Shown here: piece by piece, positions 1-10,438 of the stretch
Numbering within the stretch: the first letter of the stretch is position 1
Layout: every line of letters begins with the position of its first letter
Source of the DNA: a candidate division WOR-3 bacterium
GTDB taxonomy: Bacteria; Hydrothermota; Hydrothermia; LBFQ01; DSFT01
Assembly: GCA_965649115.1 (NCBI GenBank)
Contig: CBFGJN010000063.1
Location: 1-10,442 of the forward strand
Direction of reading: 5' to 3'
DNA: 10,442 nucleotides
The notes under the pieces: generated by a model
What the model was told of the DNA's origin: nothing
The model's input: only the letters and a program-made list of their open reading frames with translations
Database searches by the model: none
Program-made: the position numbers and the translations under genes

Positions 1-127
1 GGGGGATTATTAGGGGGGCTCTGCCCCCCAAAGCCGAAATATGGGTATTTTAAAGGCGAAGCCTTGAATATAGGGTGGGTGGGAAAATAAAGAAAAATAA
101 ATAATTCCAGAATTATTGGACAAGGCA
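1..127 (+). mobile_element. MITE-like repeat copy A (left end cut off by window edge)
   Basis: Aligns by eye with 1268-1395: GGGGGATTATTAGGGGGGCTCTGCCCCCCAAAG, hairpin AAGGC-GAA-GCCTT (53-65), GGGTGGGTGGG (73-83), right TIR AATTATTGGACAAGGCA (111-127). Confidence 0.8.
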
Positions 128-147
128 TAAGATATAATCCTTAAAGC

Positions 148-157
148 TTTAAAATTT
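148..157 (+). promoter_or_regulatory. Putative -10 element (TTTAAAATTT; hexamer TAAAAT 150-155) for the tRNA-Val/GT2 transcript
   Basis: Same motif lies just upstream of nuoG, ctaB and glmM. An alternative perfect TATAAT is at 133-138. AT-rich background limits confidence. Confidence 0.45.
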
Positions 158-170
158 CAAACTTCTTTTA

Positions 171-244
171 GGGCGGGTAGCTCAGTAGGTGAGAGCGCTG
201 CCCTTACAAGGCAGAGGTCAGAGGTTCAAGTCCTCTCCCGCCCA
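171..244 (+). tRNA. tRNA-Val (anticodon TAC), CCA not encoded
   Basis: Acceptor stem GGGCGGG(171-177)/CCCGCCC(237-243), D-stem GCTC/GAGC, anticodon arm CTGCC-CTTACAA-GGCAG (TAC 205-207), T-arm AGAGG-TTCAAGT-CCTCT, discriminator A244 followed by TTT. Confidence 0.97.
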
Positions 245-913: not shown

Positions 914-915
914 TT

Positions 916-1007
916 AAAGGCTAAAACTGGGTATTTTAGAGGACGTTAGGAAGCCGAAGGCTTAATTTCAGGGTGAGCTGGAAAATAAAGAATTATTGAA
1001 CACAGCA
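916..1007 (+). mobile_element. MITE-like repeat copy B (5'-truncated, degenerate)
   Basis: AAAGGCTAAAACTGGGTATTTTA, hairpin AAGCC-GAA-GGCTT (951-963), degenerate GGGTGAGCTGG, right TIR variant AATTATTGAACACAGCA (991-1007). Confidence 0.72.
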
Positions 1008-1016
1008 AAAAATTTA

Positions 1017-1180
1017 TGCTTTGTCTAGTGATTGATAATCAATCACTTATAAAAAATTCATTGAAATACTTGAAATAATGGGGGGATTAAGGGGGCGAAG
1101 CTTTTAAGGCGAAGCCTTATTTTCAGGGTGGGCGGGCAAAATAAGAAATAATCTATATTTCAGAATTACTAGACAAAACA
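1017..1180 (+). mobile_element. MITE-like repeat copy C (164 bp, internally deleted), flanked by exact 9-bp direct repeat AAAAATTTA
   Basis: Left TIR TGCTTTGTCTAGTGATT (1017-1033), right TIR AATTACTAGACAAAACA (1164-1180); AAAAATTTA at 1008-1016 and 1181-1189. Confidence 0.8.
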
Positions 1181-1189
1181 AAAAATTTA

Positions 1190-1395
1190 TGCTTTGTCCA
1201 ATAATTATTGTTAAATCCTTGATTATCAATAACTTATAAAAGTTTTGAGGAAATTATAGATTTTATGGGGGGATTATTAGGGGGGCTCTGCCCCCCAAAG
1301 GCAAAAAACGGGTATTTATAAGCCGAAGGCTTAATTATAGGGTGGGTGGGGAAAATATAGAAATAATCATATTTTTAGAATTACTAGACAAAACA
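1190..1395 (+). mobile_element. MITE-like repeat copy D (206 bp, full length)
   Basis: Left TIR TGCTTTGTCCAATAATT (1190-1206), right TIR AATTACTAGACAAAACA (1379-1395); IHF-like site, two hairpins and G-tract inside; colinear with the reverse complement of 10235-10438. Confidence 0.85.
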
Positions 1396-1414
1396 AAAAT
1401 TTATTTATTAGAAC

Positions 1415-1424
1415 TTTAAAATTT
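1415..1424 (+). promoter_or_regulatory. Putative -10 element (TAAAAT 1417-1422) 7 nt before the nuoG ATG; leaderless-type promoter
   Basis: ACTTTAAAATTTTCAAAATG with no Shine-Dalgarno; near-identical context upstream of glmM. Confidence 0.55.
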
Positions 1425-1429
1425 TCAAA

Positions 1430-3814
1430 ATGCCTAAAATTTTCATAAATAACAAAGAATATGAATTTAAACAAGGTGAAACAATTTTGGAGGTTGCTTG
1501 GAGAAATAACATATTTATTCCTGTTTTTTGTTATCATCCCAAAATGCCTTATGTAGCTGCTTGTAGAATTTGTAATGTTGAAGTTAAAGTAAATAATATC
1601 ACAAGAATTATGCCAGCATGTGCAACAGTGTGTTCAGACAATATGGAAGTTATAACAAATAGTCCTGTTGTTAAAAATGATATTCAAAAAGGTGTTCTTG
1701 AATTACTATTATTAAATCATCCTTTGGATTGTCCTACATGTGATGCGGGAGGGGAATGTGATTTACAAGAGCTAACATTAAGATTTGGAAGTGATAGAAG
1801 TAGATATGAATTCCCAAAGAGAGAATTTGAAAGGAAGAATGTTAGTCCATTTCTTGACCTTTATCCAAATAGATGTATTGAATGCGATAGATGTAGTAGA
1901 TTTTTTTGGTTAATTGGAGGAGGAACTGAATGGGGAACTTATAATAGGGGTTGGTATGAGGTTTTTGGTGTTTGGGAAAAAGAAATTATAGAAAATGAAT
2001 TTTCTGGAAATATGTGGGAAATTTGTCCTCTTGGTGCAATAAATGATGGAAGTTATAAATTCAAAGCAAGACCTTGGGAAATTGAAAGTATTGAAAGTAT
2101 TGCTCCTGACGATTCTATTGGTTCTAACATATATGTAGAAGTAAGAAGGAAAAAACCATTAAGTAGAGGACCTTTTGAAATTGGAGGGAGGAGAAAGGAT
2201 TTATTTAAAGTTTATAGAATCACTTCAAGGGATAACCCCTCTGTAAATGATTTTTGGCTTTCAGATAGGGAAAGATATTCTTATAGTTGGGTAAATGCTG
2301 AAAATAGAATTGCTTATCCAACAATTAAAGAAAATGGAAATTATAGAAAAGTTAATTGGGAATATATTTTAGATGCTATTTACGAAGATATTAAAAATTT
2401 AAAAAGTGATGAAATCGCTTTAATTAGTGGTGCAAGAAGTTCAAATGAAAGTGCATTTTTATCAAAGATATTATTTAAGGAATTTTTATTTACTGAAAAT
2501 ATAAGCTTTCTGAATTATGATAAAGACCCAATAAAAGAAGTTTTTGGATATTCAATTGGAAATGCTAAAATTACAGATATTGACACTGCTCAAAACATAA
2601 TTATTTTTGGTGATATTAAGAATAGCTTTCCAATCCTTGGAATTAGAATTATTAAAGCAAAAAGAAATAATGCTAATGTTTATGTTTTTAACTATTATAA
2701 GGAAAGGTACATAAGTGAAAATTGGGCAAAAGGTATTCTTTTTCATCCAAATGAGATTGAATTTTATGCTTATAAACTTGCAAAACTACTTAAAGATGGT
2801 GAAAAATTTGAAGATATTGAATTGAAAGATGGAAAAACTATTATTATTCTACCTGATAATTTACCATATAGTGTTATAAGAAATGTTTTAATTGGTTCAG
2901 TTTATAGAGAAAATTGTAAGGTTTTAATTTTGAGAACAAAACCCAATGCCCAAGGATTTATTGATGTTGGACTAAATAGTGTTTCAATTTATGATATTAT
3001 TCAAAATGCAAACGAAGGTAAAATTAAGGCATTATTTATTTGGCATACTGATTTAATTTTAGAATTTCCAAGTAGGAATGAAATTGAAAATGCTTTAAGT
3101 AAAATTCCTATAATTATTTATATTTCTCCCTTTGCAGATTATTCTATAAAATATGCAAAATATATCTTACCTGAAACGACAATTTTTGAAGAAGATGGAA
3201 GTAGAACAAATTGCGAAGGAAGGGTACAAATTCACAAACAAGCGTTATGGAATTATGAAGATAGTATGCCTGCTTGGTGGATATTCAAAAGTTTAATTAA
3301 AAGATTTGGAATAAATTTAAATATCAATTCAATAGATGATATTAGAAAATTGATGAAAAAAGAAGTTTTTGAATATAATAGTGTTAGCTTTGATAAAAAA
3401 CCAAATTATAGAAATTATCCACCATTTATTCCATCAATTAAAAAACTTATAAAATTTTATGAATATGATTTAGCAAATTATGTCCTTTCGTATAAGAAAA
3501 TTGATTTAATTGAGCCAAGTTTAAAACCAATTGAAAATGTCTTAATAACATCAAATCATATATACAAAAGCTCATTTTATGCATGTAGAAGTGAGATTTT
3601 TTATGATTACATAAAACCCTATATAAGGACTATTGAAGCAAATTCAAAAACATTAAAACAAATTGCTTGGGAAAAAACTATCAAAATTGGTGATGAAATT
3701 TTTGAAGTGAAAATTAATGAGGGTATTGTTGATAATGTTTTAATTTACAGACCACTTTTCTTTGATAGTAAAATAAATTACTACTTAAATAGGGAAGGTC
3801 TATTGAAATTATGA
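1430..3814 (+). CDS. nuoG: NADH-quinone oxidoreductase subunit G-like protein (2Fe-2S and 4Fe-4S domains plus molybdopterin-oxidoreductase-like domain)
   Basis: N1b motif FCYHP...AACRIC...PAC, N5 motif HPLDCPTCDAGGECDLQ, N4 motif RCIECDRC...FSGNMWEICPLGA, then FKARPWE and a C-terminal ILPETTIFEEDGSRTNCEGRVQ motif. Confidence 0.85.
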   Translation: MPKIFINNKEYEFKQGETILEVAWRNNIFIPVFCYHPKMPYVAACRICNVEVKVNNITRIMPACATVCSDNMEVITNSPVVKNDIQKGVLELLLLNHPLDCPTCDAGGECDLQELTLRFGSDRSRYEFPKREFERKNVSPFLDLYPNRCIECDRCSRFFWLIGGGTEWGTYNRGWYEVFGVWEKEIIENEFSGNMWEICPLGAINDGSYKFKARPWEIESIESIAPDDSIGSNIYVEVRRKKPLSRGPFEIGGRRKDLFKVYRITSRDNPSVNDFWLSDRERYSYSWVNAENRIAYPTIKENGNYRKVNWEYILDAIYEDIKNLKSDEIALISGARSSNESAFLSKILFKEFLFTENISFLNYDKDPIKEVFGYSIGNAKITDIDTAQNIIIFGDIKNSFPILGIRIIKAKRNNANVYVFNYYKERYISENWAKGILFHPNEIEFYAYKLAKLLKDGEKFEDIELKDGKTIIILPDNLPYSVIRNVLIGSVYRENCKVLILRTKPNAQGFIDVGLNSVSIYDIIQNANEGKIKALFIWHTDLILEFPSRNEIENALSKIPIIIYISPFADYSIKYAKYILPETTIFEEDGSRTNCEGRVQIHKQALWNYEDSMPAWWIFKSLIKRFGINLNINSIDDIRKLMKKEVFEYNSVSFDKKPNYRNYPPFIPSIKKLIKFYEYDLANYVLSYKKIDLIEPSLKPIENVLITSNHIYKSSFYACRSEIFYDYIKPYIRTIEANSKTLKQIAWEKTIKIGDEIFEVKINEGIVDNVLIYRPLFFDSKINYYLNREGLLKL

Positions 3815-6686: not shown

Positions 6687-7529
6687 TTGATAAAGCACCT
6701 TATTGAAATTACAAAACCAGGAATTACTTTATGGGTAGGGATTACTGCTTTTGGAGGTTCAATCATTGCTAATGTTGATATTATTAAATCAATAATAATT
6801 AGTTTTTTTGTTATGGTTTCAGCAGGAGGTTCAGCAGTTTTAAATAACTATTTTGATAGAGATATTGATAAAATTATGAATAGAACTAAAAATAGAGCAT
6901 TAGCAAGTAATAAAATAAATCCAAAAATTGCCTTAATTTATGGATTTTTATTATGTATTTTAGGACTTTTAGGAATTTTATATTTTAGTTTTAAAGCTTT
7001 CATTTTAGATTTAATAGCAATAGTATCATATTCGTTTGTTTATACATTTTTAAAAAGAAAAACTCCCTTCTCAATAATAATTGGTTCAATTCCAGGAGCG
7101 CTTCCAACTTCAATTGGATATGTCGCTATGAAAAATGAAGTTGATATTATTGCTTTTAGTCTTTTTTCATTAATGTTTTTATGGCAACCTTCTCATTTTA
7201 TTTATTTGTCTTTATTCTTAAAAGATGATTATAAAAATGCAAAAATCCCTACAATTTCAGTTAAATATAGTTATGAATATAATAAAATTTTAAGCTTTCT
7301 TTATTCATTCTCAATAATTCCAATAACAATAGCAATTTACTATATTGCTAATTTAAGTATCAGCTTTTTGATTTTAGTTCTATTTTTGAATATAATTTGG
7401 ATTACTATTAACTTTACTTATTGGAAAAACATTATTAACGAAAAAATAATGTTTATTTCATCAAATTTTTATGTTTTATTTATATTCTCACTTATTGCCC
7501 TTGATAAAATTATTATTCATAAACCCTAA
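6687..7529 (+). CDS. cyoE: Protoheme IX farnesyltransferase (heme o synthase, UbiA family; CtaB/CyoE)
   Basis: NNYFDRDIDKIMNRTKNR, LKRKTP, GSIPGALP, FLWQPSHF and DDYKNAKIP motifs; multiple hydrophobic segments; TTG start. Confidence 0.92.
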   Translation: MIKHLIEITKPGITLWVGITAFGGSIIANVDIIKSIIISFFVMVSAGGSAVLNNYFDRDIDKIMNRTKNRALASNKINPKIALIYGFLLCILGLLGILYFSFKAFILDLIAIVSYSFVYTFLKRKTPFSIIIGSIPGALPTSIGYVAMKNEVDIIAFSLFSLMFLWQPSHFIYLSLFLKDDYKNAKIPTISVKYSYEYNKILSFLYSFSIIPITIAIYYIANLSISFLILVLFLNIIWITINFTYWKNIINEKIMFISSNFYVLFIFSLIALDKIIIHKP

Positions 7530-8937
7530 AATAAGTTTTTTTATTTATTTTTGAACCTTTAAAAAGCAGAATATAAATTCCATCATTTAAATTTTGAGTG
7601 TTTAAATTAAAAATAATTCTATTTGTTCCTTTAACACTATAAACTTTTTCAATTAATCTTCCAATATCATCAAAAAGATAAACATCAACATCATCATTTT
7701 CATTTAAATAAGCAGAGATTGTTAAAATCTCTCCTCTTTTTATTTTTTTATTTGAAATATATATTTCCAAATTTAAATTTGAACTATCAATATAAACACT
7801 ATTTATTTTATTGGGGGTTCCAAAATCAATTAAGGAACTTTTCCAACTATCCTTCAAATAGCCTTTTAAACTTGGATTTATTTTTTCAAGGGTAAGAACA
7901 CCTTTACCTCCATAAGAAGAACTATAATAAACACTATCAAACTGAAAATTAAATTTTGAAATTAAAACTAAGCTTTCATAATTATCATTCAACGATATAA
8001 AATCTACAACACTATCTGCCCTAAAAACTTTAAAGCTTTTTGGATTTATTTTTCCAATTAATCTAAATTCATTTTTTGCCATATCTAAAATTCTAAATTT
8101 TGACAAATCAATTTCAATATCACTATTATTATAAATTTCAATCCATTCAGGATTATAATCATATTCAATTTCATTTATTATTAAAATTGGATAAAAAATT
8201 GGTACATAAAAGTAATCGTAAAAATTTTTTGAAAGAATTTCAATTTTTGGTGATTTTGGATTTGAAATTGTAATTTCATAATTGCTATTTGGATTTATAG
8301 AAACATTAAAATAGAATGTATCTTTTGAAATGATTTTTATAGTGTCTGAAAACAATTGATTTGATAAATTTTTTATTATAATTTTTAAATAATTTGAAGT
8401 TAAGTAAGCACTATCCAATTTTAATAAGCTGTTTGAGAAGATTGAATTTTGATAGTTTGGTGTTCCATTTACATTTAAACTTATTCCCCATTCGTCAATA
8501 TCATAATTTATTCGTTCAATTGAATGAGCAATAGGAACATTTAAAATTGGTTTCTCAAATTTAGCAATTGTATCATTAAATTGATTTAATATATATATAC
8601 TATCATTTTTTGAAAGACCATTTCCAATGGCATTATCATCAACAGTTAAAACATTTCCAAATAAATTATAATTTATTGGACAATTTAAAAAATAATTACT
8701 ATCAATTATTAGCGTAAATTCCTTTGGTAAAGTAAACATTCTTGATTGAATATAATTTGGAGGATTTTGAACTTGAATAATGTAATCAATATCTTCCCCA
8801 TCTGAAATTTTAAAACCATTTAAATAGATTGTATCATTTGAATTATTATAAATTTCAATATATTCTCCACAACTCTCATCACTTGGATAATTCATTACCT
8901 CATTTATTAAAAGATTTCCTAATAAAATCCAAAACAT
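7513..8937 (-). CDS. Exported/surface protein with two lamin-tail domains and a C-terminal Ig-like (T9SS-CTD/FlgD-like) domain
   Basis: Two repeats of INE...EY/WIEIYN...GTP (LINEVMNYP..GEYIEIYNNS; IINEIEYD..PEWIEIYNNS); C-terminus LFDDIGRLI...LNTQNLNDGIYILLFK; Asn-rich. In-frame stop just upstream fixes the ATG at 8937. Confidence 0.8.
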   Translation of the reverse strand: MFWILLGNLLINEVMNYPSDESCGEYIEIYNNSNDTIYLNGFKISDGEDIDYIIQVQNPPNYIQSRMFTLPKEFTLIIDSNYFLNCPINYNLFGNVLTVDDNAIGNGLSKNDSIYILNQFNDTIAKFEKPILNVPIAHSIERINYDIDEWGISLNVNGTPNYQNSIFSNSLLKLDSAYLTSNYLKIIIKNLSNQLFSDTIKIISKDTFYFNVSINPNSNYEITISNPKSPKIEILSKNFYDYFYVPIFYPILIINEIEYDYNPEWIEIYNNSDIEIDLSKFRILDMAKNEFRLIGKINPKSFKVFRADSVVDFISLNDNYESLVLISKFNFQFDSVYYSSSYGGKGVLTLEKINPSLKGYLKDSWKSSLIDFGTPNKINSVYIDSSNLNLEIYISNKKIKRGEILTISAYLNENDDVDVYLFDDIGRLIEKVYSVKGTNRIIFNLNTQNLNDGIYILLFKGSKINKKTYFRVYE

Positions 8938-10198
8938 AATCTATAAATTTCTTTTCAAGACTTTCAGCATATATTCTTATTATTGGTTCAGTATTTGATG
9001 GTCTAATGTGAATCCATCCATTACTTTGCTTTAAATATAATCCATCTTCAAAATTTTTTTCAAAATTTGAAAATTCTTTTAAAAACTTTTCCTTGATTTC
9101 TTCAAAATTATCGTTTTCAATTTTTTCCTTTATAAAATGTGTTCTTGGAAGATTATTTATAAGTTTAAAAATTCTTCCCTCAACATAGCTATTTAAAATC
9201 AAACCTAAGGATAGTAATCCATCTCTTGTTTTGTTAAATTTTGGATAAATAATTCCACCGTTTCCTTCTCCTCCAATAATACTTTTTGTTTCTTCAATTC
9301 TTTTTATTACATTTGCTTCGCCTACTTTTGAGCGAATTACATTTACCCCAAATTCTTTCGCTATAAAATCAACTAACATCGTTGTAGAATAATTCACTAC
9401 AATATCTCCTTTCTCTCTTTGAAGAATTTCATATATTCCAACTAAAATTGTCCATTCCTCTGAAAACAATCCGAAATTTTTCAATCCAAATAAAAGTCTA
9501 TCTCCATCCGGATCAGTAGCAAAAACTAAATCACATTCATCTTTTAGTTCTTCTAAATGTCTTAAATGTTCAATTCTTGGTTCAGGATTTCTTGTAAATA
9601 CCCCACTATTATCACAATTTATCTTAATAATGTTTTTTATACCAAATTTTTCAATTAGTTCTGGAAAAACCTTATAGCCTGCACCATTCACGCAATCAAT
9701 AGCAACTTTTATTGAACTATTAATAATTTTTAAACCTACAAAATCAACAATAGATGAAATATGAATTTTATAACTATTTTCGGCATATATTAAATCACCT
9801 ATACATGATGAAAAATTTAAATTGTTTAAATAATTTTTTAATGTTTCAAGTTCTTCTTCAAATAAAAATCTATTTTTTATGGCAAGTTTCAATGCATTAT
9901 ATTCACTTGGATTATGACTTGCTGTAATAATAATACCTCCATCTAAATTTAAGTTTTTTATTATATATAAGCTTGTTGGTGTTGGACAAATTGAAAGACT
10001 ATAAACATTTTTACATGTTGAGAGAGCAGTATTTATAACTATTGGATATAGGACTTTTCCAGAGCTTCTTGTATCTCTTGAAACAACAATGTTTTTACCA
10101 TCTAAATAATTACAAAATGCATTTGTCCAAATTAAAGCACTATAAGGATTTAATTCATTTGGATATAATCCCCTTATTCCTGAGACTGAGATTTTCAA
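8900..10198 (-). CDS. glmM: Alpha-D-phosphohexomutase (phosphoglucosamine mutase / phosphomannomutase)
   Basis: SGIRG, catalytic TASHNP, metal-binding DPDGDR, sugar-binding GEGNGG, IRPSNTEP; TTG start. Specificity (GlmM vs PMM/PGM) cannot be resolved by eye. Confidence 0.85.
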   Translation of the reverse strand: MKISVSGIRGLYPNELNPYSALIWTNAFCNYLDGKNIVVSRDTRSSGKVLYPIVINTALSTCKNVYSLSICPTPTSLYIIKNLNLDGGIIITASHNPSEYNALKLAIKNRFLFEEELETLKNYLNNLNFSSCIGDLIYAENSYKIHISSIVDFVGLKIINSSIKVAIDCVNGAGYKVFPELIEKFGIKNIIKINCDNSGVFTRNPEPRIEHLRHLEELKDECDLVFATDPDGDRLLFGLKNFGLFSEEWTILVGIYEILQREKGDIVVNYSTTMLVDFIAKEFGVNVIRSKVGEANVIKRIEETKSIIGGEGNGGIIYPKFNKTRDGLLSLGLILNSYVEGRIFKLINNLPRTHFIKEKIENDNFEEIKEKFLKEFSNFEKNFEDGLYLKQSNGWIHIRPSNTEPIIRIYAESLEKKFIDYVLDFIRKSFNK

Positions 10199-10204
10199 TT
10201 TTCA

Positions 10205-10214
10205 AAATTTTAAA
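10205..10214 (-). promoter_or_regulatory. Putative -10 element (TAAAAT 10212-10207) 8 nt before the glmM TTG; leaderless-type promoter
   Basis: Minus strand reads ACTTTAAAATTTTGAAAATTG; no Shine-Dalgarno. Confidence 0.55.
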
Positions 10215-10234
10215 GTAGAAATTGAAAAATTAGG

Positions 10235-10438
10235 TGCTTTGTCCAATAATTCTGGAAATATAATCATTTCTATGTTTTCCCACCCACCCTGAAATAAAGG
10301 CTACGCCTTTAAAATGCCCATTTTTCGGCTTTAGGGGGCTTCGCCCCCCATCAAAACCCCTCTAAAATCAATAATTTCCTTAAAATTTTTATAAGTTATT
10401 GATAATCAATAACCTAACAACAATTATTGGACAAAGCA
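10235..10438 (-). mobile_element. MITE-like repeat copy E (204 bp, full length, inverted, perfect 17-bp TIRs)
   Basis: TGCTTTGTCCAATAATT (10235-10251) and AATTATTGGACAAAGCA (10422-10438) are exact inverted repeats; the interior is the reverse complement of the copy D layout. Confidence 0.88.

Follow-up and report, generated by a model that had tools for sequence, protein, structure and literature searches.

The stretch of DNA considered here (the window) is one entire contig, C63, of 10,442 bases, taken from a metagenome-assembled genome of Candidatus Hydrothermia that we call G000 (1.848 Mb in 99 contigs, 27.6% G+C). It contains copies, labelled A to E, of a repeat that measures 206 bp at full length. 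This repeat is a transposon, a non-autonomous miniature inverted-repeat transposable element (MITE), and our subject is the position of its right end, which tends to stand at a fixed short distance upstream of a promoter-like motif. We will argue that the element is probably sent to this position by its own transposition machinery.

Copy A (1..127, plus strand) has lost its left part at the contig start, an effect of the assembly because the window is the whole contig; its right end, ...GGACAAGGCA, closes at 127. A non-conserved spacer of 19 nt follows (128..146, plus strand), and its first 9 nt are counted as the target duplication by the genome-wide rule given below, the left flank lying beyond the contig end. 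Next comes the promoter-like motif CTTTAAAATTT (147..157, plus strand, with TAAAAT at 150-155), and 13 nt further on the gene it would serve, that for tRNA-Val (TAC; 171..244, plus strand).

Copies B, C and D form a stack of three units, all on the plus strand. B (914..1007) is the oldest and most distal; its left half is absent and its right end, ...GAACACAGCA, closes at 1007. C (1017..1180) is the middle unit and retains both ends around an internal deletion. D (1190..1395) is full length at 206 nt, proximal to the promoter and the best preserved of the three. The linkers between B and C (1008..1016) and between C and D (1181..1189) are the same 9-nt sequence, AAAAATTTA, a copy of the target duplication. 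The 18-nt spacer beyond D (1396..1413) begins with AAAATTTAT, which is the linker sequence minus one A in its A-run, and it leads to a second CTTTAAAATTT (1414..1424, plus strand, TAAAAT at 1417-1422). The ATG of a NuoG-like open reading frame (ORF) stands 7 nt past this hexamer (1430..3814, plus strand, 794 aa; TIGR01973 at 438 bits, slightly below the cut-off of 470), and its message is probably leaderless. There is no ORF of at least 60 aa within the stack (914-1429).

Copy E lies on the minus strand (10235..10438) and retains both ends, the left one 4 nt from the contig end and the right one towards a GlmM-like gene. Its 19-nt spacer (10216..10234) begins, on the minus strand, with CCTAATTTT, and the last 4 nt of this 9-mer equal the 4 nt of left flank that remain on the contig. 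The motif CTTTAAAATTT follows (10205..10215, minus strand, TAAAAT at 10212-10207). The TTG start of the phosphoglucosamine-mutase-like (GlmM-like) ORF is 8 nt past the hexamer (8900..10198, minus strand, 432 aa; TIGR03990 at 373 bits, cut-off 439).

A preliminary description of this sequence had given the gap between the element and TAAAAT as 22, 21 and 22 nt for copies A, D and E, and these figures are correct: the terminal A is at 127 and TAAAAT at 150, the end is at 1395 and TAAAAT at 1417, and on the minus strand the end is at 10235 and TAAAAT runs from 10212. It had also described the gap sequences as sharing a final CTT. That they share something is right, and the extent was understated, since all three read the full CTTTAAAATTT.

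The rest of the argument depends on the whole genome. A profile was built first from the copies in the window and then from 233 full-length genomic copies, and G000 was searched with it. This gave 770 matches covering 100,390 bases, or 5.4% of the genome, with the right end retained in 475 of them. Gene positions genome-wide are stop-to-stop ORF calls made for this analysis; these ORFs span 93% of the genome, and we put the coding share at about 90%.

The element has the structure T-GCTTTGTCC...GGACAAAGC-A with 17-nt inverted ends, left TGCTTTGTCCAATAATT against right TGCTTTGTCTAGTAATT (as the reverse complement) in the consensus of the 233 full copies. A register test on full copies gives a target duplication of 9 bp. 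The element includes the T that precedes GCTTTGTCC, present in 205 of 221 copies, and the A that follows ...AAGC, present in 212 of them. When 10-nt flanks are compared, the two sides agree with at most one mismatch for 64 of 124 copies that stand alone and for 51 of 97 that follow another copy, as against 0.6 and 1.8 when the flank pairings are shuffled. Taken together, 115 of the 221 full copies carry the duplication at this threshold and about 2.4 would in shuffled pairings. Inverted ends, duplication, small size and copy number are those of a MITE. The median pairwise identity of full copies is 78%, and five pairs of copies are at least 98.5% identical at separate loci with different duplications, so the family is both old and still active. 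Seven of the ten copies in these youngest pairs stand beside the promoter motif.

A reading of the repeat as a structured RNA was tried and dropped, since the element has no Rfam match at E up to 1 and copy D folds no better than its shuffles (z = -0.96). The copies do have an internal stem, which occurs in two forms, AAGGCGAAGCCTT and AAGCCGAAGGCTT (window 53-65, 951-963, 1106-1118 and 1320-1332). The two forms are a swapped pair, AAGGC...GCCTT in one and AAGCC...GGCTT in the other, and the swap may be a compensatory change or the flip of a palindrome.

What is the motif that the element stands next to? CTTTAAAATTT has 573 exact copies in G000, where base composition would give about 20, and 387 exact motifs lie 2-14 nt before the start codon of an ORF of at least 80 codons. 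The start codon is mostly 6-10 nt after TAAAAT, and therefore most genes behind the motif would have leaderless or nearly leaderless messages; other sites precede tRNAs or leaders with a Shine-Dalgarno sequence, a leader with AAGGAGG being found in a minority. TAAAAT, the core of the motif, agrees with the -10 consensus TATAAT at five of six positions. Upstream of the motif there is no information content, either in 244 element-free sites or in the spacer of the 141 sites of the main spacing class defined below, and a consensus scan found no -35 hexamer 16-18 nt upstream at these sites. With nothing conserved there, we conclude that these promoters have no -35 consensus. A scan for the sigma-70 consensus gave no site that marks the element or its junction. 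From its position we infer that CTTTAAAATTT is the general promoter of this lineage, of an extended -10 type, with transcription starting at or next to the start codon and mostly leaderless messages. An archaeal-type TATA box was also considered and is ruled out because the start codon is only 6-10 nt past the hexamer.

Six RNA-labelled runs (5-10% of sampled words) offer contigs only, mostly 90-95% like G000 and from a relative. One such contig begins at 1412, just upstream of the nuoG motif; contigs cannot show starts. The summed RNA-library depth over the element is high, and it is a sum across many repeat copies. Neither was used as evidence.

The element has occupied a large part of these promoters. 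By one count it is found at 295 of 566 exact motifs, 244 of the 566 having no element within 70 nt upstream. By the count tied to start codons it is at 187 of 387 exact motifs; for motifs with one mismatch the figure is 66 of 219, and for those with two it is 32 of 310. This falling occupancy fits recognition of the motif or of whatever binds it; many of the two-mismatch sites may not be promoters.

Distances were taken for the 362 non-tandem right ends, from the 475, that have at least 90 nt of flank. The first TAAAAT begins after a gap of 21-22 nt from the terminal A in 164 of the 362, and in 100 dinucleotide-preserving shuffles of the same flanks this gap occurs 2.7 times on average and 6 times at most. 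There is a second class with a gap of 13-15 nt (48 of 362 against a shuffle mean of 3.9). If up to two mismatches to the 11-mer are allowed, 257 of the 362 right ends fall in the two spacing classes and 34 have the motif at other offsets. The main peak is only 1-2 nt wide, with 141 right ends at one offset and 47 at the next. The left ends serve as a mirror control: 66 of 215 have a motif, scattered across offsets 1-69 with no peak.

Orientation is strongly biased too. Past the right end, the next gene shares the strand of the element 265 times and has the other strand 34 times (binomial p = 1.6e-45); the remaining right ends have no ORF beyond them (22), run into another copy (123) or reach the contig end (31). 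The constant distance and orientation that had been proposed from three loci in the window are thus found across the genome, where the distribution is sharply peaked rather than flat and the orientation is not random. The proposal that the element abuts the -35 position also holds up, the terminal A being at about -35 if transcription starts about 7 nt after TAAAAT.

Counted by motif start, the second class has 64 of the 362 right ends, with the motif 11-14 nt after ...GC. In its largest subclass the motif is preceded by TG in 19 of 35 cases; the main class has 27 of 141 (p = 7e-5) and free promoters 29 of 200 (p = 1e-6). The element itself also begins with TGCTTT. The machinery may take this TGCTTT for the end of a resident copy and insert beside it; alternatively a proximal copy may have been lost by recombination between its own TGCTTT and that of the promoter.

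The MITE codes for nothing that could move it, to judge from the stack, and we think its parent can be recognized. Two kinds of identical insertion sequence (IS) termini occur at 26 places in G000, nearly all of them some 125 nt from a contig end, which is where an IS present in many copies should be found if it interrupts assembly from short reads. These termini and the MITE ends share their first 18-30 nt. The left IS terminus has about 30 nt as in the MITE left end, then a motif of the host type, and 4 nt later the ATG of a transposase; thus the IS uses the promoter type it homes to. This motif reads ATTTAAAATTTT (L041, C93:1-300, and L043, C50:13900-14223), and the transposase copies of C93 and C50 differ at several of their first 49-56 residues. 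Contigs break at IS and MITE copies, the window itself beginning inside copy A and ending 4 nt past copy E. Repeat counts are therefore lower bounds and the IS interior is absent from the assembly.

Against NF033579, the profile for the IS5 family transposase, the N-terminal 49-56 residues give E = 1e-5 to 3e-5; being so short, these fragments score under its cut-off. Pfam gives these fragments a weak match to DDE_Tnp_1_5 (E = 0.033), and PF01609 has no match in the G000 assembly. A protein search found P0001, a 300-aa relative from other metagenomes, and 8 metagenome loci. Over the fragment P0001 has 92% identity, and it contains PF01609 and PF13737. Its best family is NF033579 (245 bits, cut-off 140), and all 8 families listed for it are IS-transposase models (IS5, IS1182, IS4, IS1380, IS982, IS701). 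Exact-pattern scans of genome and metagenome contigs with a piece of the IS left end gave no match, a DNA search of the genus found the IS interior at G000 contig ends only, and pairing of inverted ends 600-3000 nt apart to find a full IS was swamped by MITE ends.

The parent keeps the same distance from promoters as its MITE. At the right ends of the IS in G000 the motif is 18-19 nt after the terminal A in 11 of 16 cases, and 3 of the 16 adjoin a MITE. On the other metagenome contigs it is found at 11, 18 or 19 nt in five of seven, and a sixth has a two-mismatch variant at 19. The interior of the IS is unrelated to that of the MITE and the geometry is the same, so the distance belongs to the transposition system and not to the MITE interior. 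The shared ends suggest that the MITE is probably mobilised by the IS5-family DDE transposase of this multi-copy IS, and we count this as part of the interpretation given below.

Stacks such as B-C-D are common. The 770 matches resolve into 482 loci, 288 with a single unit and 194 with 2-6 units. Among tandem-like pairs, 97 of 118 have 11 nt from ...GC to GCTTT, which is the terminal A, the 9-mer and the initial T, and the linker of a stack is the duplication of the promoter-side copy. The promoter-proximal unit outscores the next one in 104 of 134 internal same-orientation arrays and scores lower in 29 (p = 4e-11). Full-length units fall off with rank from the promoter, 86 of 155 at the first rank, 44 of 155 at the second, 4 of 48 at the third and 1 of 9 at the fourth. 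The stack in the window fits this order, with B a half copy, C internally deleted and D intact; both linkers are AAAAATTTA, and the 9-mer is one A shorter after D. Most simply, successive elements would have entered one and the same 9-mer, each time at its promoter-side copy. An element that went in beside the left end of a resident one would leave an identical stack, and the gradient of intactness could come from selection on the proximal copy as well.

Did the promoter precede the element? The sister genomes G001 and G004 have only 1-2 short, weak matches to the element, yet they hold 360 and 481 exact motifs. Upstream of the nuoG, glmM and tRNA-Val orthologues in four sister genomes the motif is present, with at most one mismatch, in 12 of 12 cases. 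Seven of the eight nuoG and glmM sites have no element in the 330 nt upstream; at the tRNA-Val sites the inspected sequence ends at the motif. In G000 the target duplication lies between the element and the motif, and therefore the motif is outside the mobile unit. We take it from these comparisons that the promoter motif predates the element at these sites. In the two relatives G002 and G003, 11 of 17 distinct non-tandem right ends at the loci examined have the motif at the canonical distances, as read from printed flanks. One locus that looked polymorphic (L008 of G003 against C94 of G000) was rejected, as G000 holds a decayed element there too.

Two other observations come from the sister genomes. 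At the nuoG site of G002 (L012, 1460-1540) a fragment of about 45 nt like the middle of the element lies directly before a one-mismatch motif, which suggests that old insertions are removed by internal deletions, some of which take part of the spacer. G001 and G004 have many back-to-back pairs of motifs on opposite strands, 5-30 nt apart, also upstream of glmM (L013, L014); such close divergent pairs fit promoters that need no -35 region.

We believe the best explanation of these data is targeted, safe-harbour transposition next to the promoter in one orientation, and we would give it a probability of roughly 0.8. The preliminary description had offered promoter-guided targeting of this kind as one of two possibilities, and it is supported by the 9-bp duplication, the pre-existing motif, the geometry of the parent IS and the flat left-end control. 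The transposition machinery would prefer a 9-bp site whose near edge is 10 nt upstream of CTTTAAAATTT, and would insert one way round, the right end facing the promoter. The terminal A would then come to lie 21-22 nt from TAAAAT, at about -35. The DNA from about -34 onward would be left intact and there would be no conserved -35 to break, so the gene would most likely keep its promoter and the insertion would be harmless. With about 90% of the genome coding, that harmlessness is what would turn the site into a safe harbour. The promoter-side 9-mer would stay a good target, new copies would land there, and older copies would be pushed upstream and decay; repeated landing at the 9-mer would build head-to-tail stacks. 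We infer that the insertions are harmless and that it is the transposase, not subsequent selection, that confers the specificity. Targeting has five points in its favour: the narrow peak, the flat left-end control, the orientation bias, the geometry of the IS and the presence of the youngest copies at promoters.

How such targeting would work is a more speculative matter. One suggestion, which we put forward tentatively, is that the IS5-family transposase finds its target either via the transcription machinery or via a promoter that mimics its own end. On the first version, RNA polymerase holoenzyme on a promoter that lacks a -35 may present the DNA at its upstream edge, and integration would take place there. 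On the second, the (TG)CTTT of the promoter resembles the first bases of the transposon end, with the TG before the motif in 19 of 35 cases of the minor spacing class against 29 of 200 free promoters, and a transposase bound to it could cut at a fixed distance.

Several things weigh against targeted insertion and should be stated together. It is not absolute: 71 of the 362 right ends have no motif (at most two mismatches) within 70 nt, 34 right ends face a gene on the opposite strand, and of the 10 youngest copies 3 stand away from any promoter motif. The second spacing class, with its gap of 13-15 nt, sits outside the main rule. All the copies we counted are survivors, and therefore selection has sharpened the pattern to some degree. 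G002 is the nearest relative of G000, about 90% identical in genes, and yet the 19-nt spacers of the two genomes cannot be aligned even where both carry the element, so it is the duplications by themselves that mark the spacer as pre-existing target DNA. The comparison of G000 with G002 and G003 yielded no clean pair of a filled and an empty site. At L027 against C34, G002 has an element and a perfect motif and G000 has neither. The interior of the parent IS is not in the assembly, and its transposase is known from 49-56 N-terminal residues and a relative from elsewhere. Finally, the words promoter, -10 and leaderless are read from position.

The rival that survives best is selection without targeting. 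It holds that insertion is nearly random and that the survivors, found in the few harmless bases upstream of a core promoter, mimic targeting. There is something to be said for this. The genome is very compact, with ORFs over 93% of it; in the sister genomes an upstream ORF or a divergent promoter reaches the motif, so the harmless space is small; every counted copy survived; and 105 of the 362 right ends are outside the two spacing classes. We nevertheless consider it unlikely, because it would have to account for a peak 1-2 nt wide (141 and 47 right ends at adjacent offsets) when left ends face divergent promoters at any distance (66 motifs, offsets 1-69). Left ends at such scattered distances mean that variable promoter distances are tolerated, and with this control flat, selection against promoter damage alone fails to explain the sharp peak. 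Selection based on position also fails on the bias of 265 against 34 in orientation, and repeated insertion at exactly the same 9-mer is left unaccounted for. The parent IS, with its unrelated interior, shows the same geometry, and 7 of the 10 youngest copies are already at promoters.

A second rival, less probable again, is that the host has domesticated the element. The host would keep it, or its right end, as an activating sequence, a substitute for the -35, a binding site or an insulator against read-through; the preliminary description had raised such a regulatory or insulator module as its other possibility. The occupancy of about half of the exact-motif promoters (187 of 387; 295 of 566) could be read in this way. 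The better preservation of the proximal copy is what selection for function would also give, and the swapped stem pair AAGGC...GCCTT and AAGCC...GGCTT may be added. The right end even has a -35-like hexamer, TAGACA (or TTGGACA, with one extra base), which in the minor class is 18-20 nt from TAAAAT. In the main class, however, that hexamer is 26-27 nt from TAAAAT, too far for a promoter of the sigma-70 type, and a hybrid promoter made with it was rejected for this class on that ground. The fold is like that of shuffled sequence (z = -0.96), Rfam has no match, and a scan of 1-1500 found no terminator-like site. Orthologous promoters in the sister genomes do without the element, stacks of up to six units with distal decay fit repeated insertion better, and a full IS with another interior takes the same place. 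The module does not stand up well against these facts.

The last rival, in which CTTTAAAATTT forms the outer edge of the element and moves along with it to bring a promoter to the gene, may draw on the 195 of 573 exact motifs that lie within 40 nt of a right end and on the L027-C34 comparison, but we think it most improbable, as no element stands within 70 nt upstream of 244 of the 566 exact motifs and the 19-nt spacer is non-conserved where the element is conserved, and the motifs of the sister genomes (360 and 481 where the element is scarce, 12 of 12 at the orthologous nuoG, glmM and tRNA-Val sites), together with a target duplication that separates element from motif, would rule it out on the sequence comparison.

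How does targeted insertion of this kind compare with what is known? The closest systems are TnGBS, which are integrative conjugative elements, and the insertion sequences ISLre2 and ISKra4. Their prokaryotic Mutator-like transposases are described in the main text of PMC3942029 as inserting them in an oriented way before promoters of the housekeeping sigma factor, at a constant 15-17 bp upstream of the -35 box and with the right end beside the promoter. The same text ascribes the orientation to asymmetric ends and a transposase signature, and it does not use the word MITE; here a MITE, in about 770 copies that stack at promoters, makes up most of the load. The likeness is in the fixed orientation with the right end by the promoter (265 against 34 here, the IS right ends being alike). 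The differences are that the transposase here appears to belong to the IS5 family (NF033579) and not to be Mutator-like, and that the element ends at about -35, 21-22 nt from a -10-like hexamer, at promoters without a conserved -35.

Among IS5-family elements the IS903 group is the closest known. Our element probably has in common with it, to judge from P0001, a single transposase ORF of about 300 aa that matches NF033579; it also has a 9-bp duplication, which is typical of the group, and a MITE with nothing but its ends in common with the parent. The short terminal inverted repeats here presumably resemble those of IS903 as well. The target preference of IS903 is weak and palindromic. A full-text literature search, judged by titles and abstract openings, returned no report of promoter targeting for IS903 or IS5-family elements or for bacterial MITEs.

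Correia elements (NEMIS) of Neisseria and other bacterial MITEs are small, abundant and non-coding, have inverted ends and lie between genes and near them. Correia elements target TA, and their ends can give rise to promoters. The element here differs in coming to a promoter that already exists, in duplicating 9 bp, and in keeping to one distance and orientation relative to the promoter. In the compact genomes of yeast (Ty3) and Dictyostelium (TRE5), safe-harbour integration takes place at a set distance upstream of RNA polymerase III genes. Those are eukaryotic retroelements guided by transcription factors.

The abstract of a preprint on the ISAba32 subgroup of the IS1202 family (bioRxiv 10.1101/2022.12.17.520857) describes insertion 5 bp from XerCD sites with a 5-bp duplication. 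The likeness to our element is a fixed short distance from a functional host site, one orientation and a duplication of fixed length. There the target is a recombinase site 5 bp from the left end and the transposase is of another family; that abstract mentions neither MITEs nor stacks. The present system resembles the TnGBS type and ISAba32 in how it works, but it is not a member of either.

Homing that spares the host is well studied for the transposons of eukaryotes and in a few bacterial systems. In bacteria, oriented homing to promoters has been published for Mutator-like transposases only, and the IS5 family would be added to them, with a different insertion point, at about -35 and within the footprint of the polymerase. 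If either polymerase guidance or end mimicry is right, a second, unrelated family of transposases evolved promoter homing and a MITE has exploited it; if it is polymerase guidance, bacteria would have their own equivalent of Ty3 at RNA polymerase III genes. The scale is unusual too: the element takes up 5.4% of the genome, sits at about half of the consensus promoters and forms stacks as high as six copies. By inserting about 22 bases upstream of the promoter box the element would have multiplied to 5% of the genome of this hot-spring bacterium without breaking genes. This makes it a natural system in which to ask what a transposase reads in a promoter, be it sequence, DNA shape or bound polymerase, and it is of possible interest for the design of site-directed insertion tools. 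For annotation of this uncultured lineage the 11-mer CTTTAAAATTT would mark promoters, most of the genes behind it appearing almost leaderless, and the repeats explain the many-contig assemblies in this genus.

The remainder of the window adds two minor observations. On the minus strand at 7513-8937 is a 474-aa ORF with no NCBIfam match at E up to 1e-5. Behind the tRNA-Val gene a glycosyltransferase frame (244-913) is open from 248, 4 bases past the 3' end of the tRNA at 244. Its family matches begin at residue 5, and there is no ATG, GTG or TTG before 467. The gene seems to start directly behind tRNA-Val, perhaps at ATT, and the sister genomes share this arrangement of tRNA-Val and glycosyltransferase.

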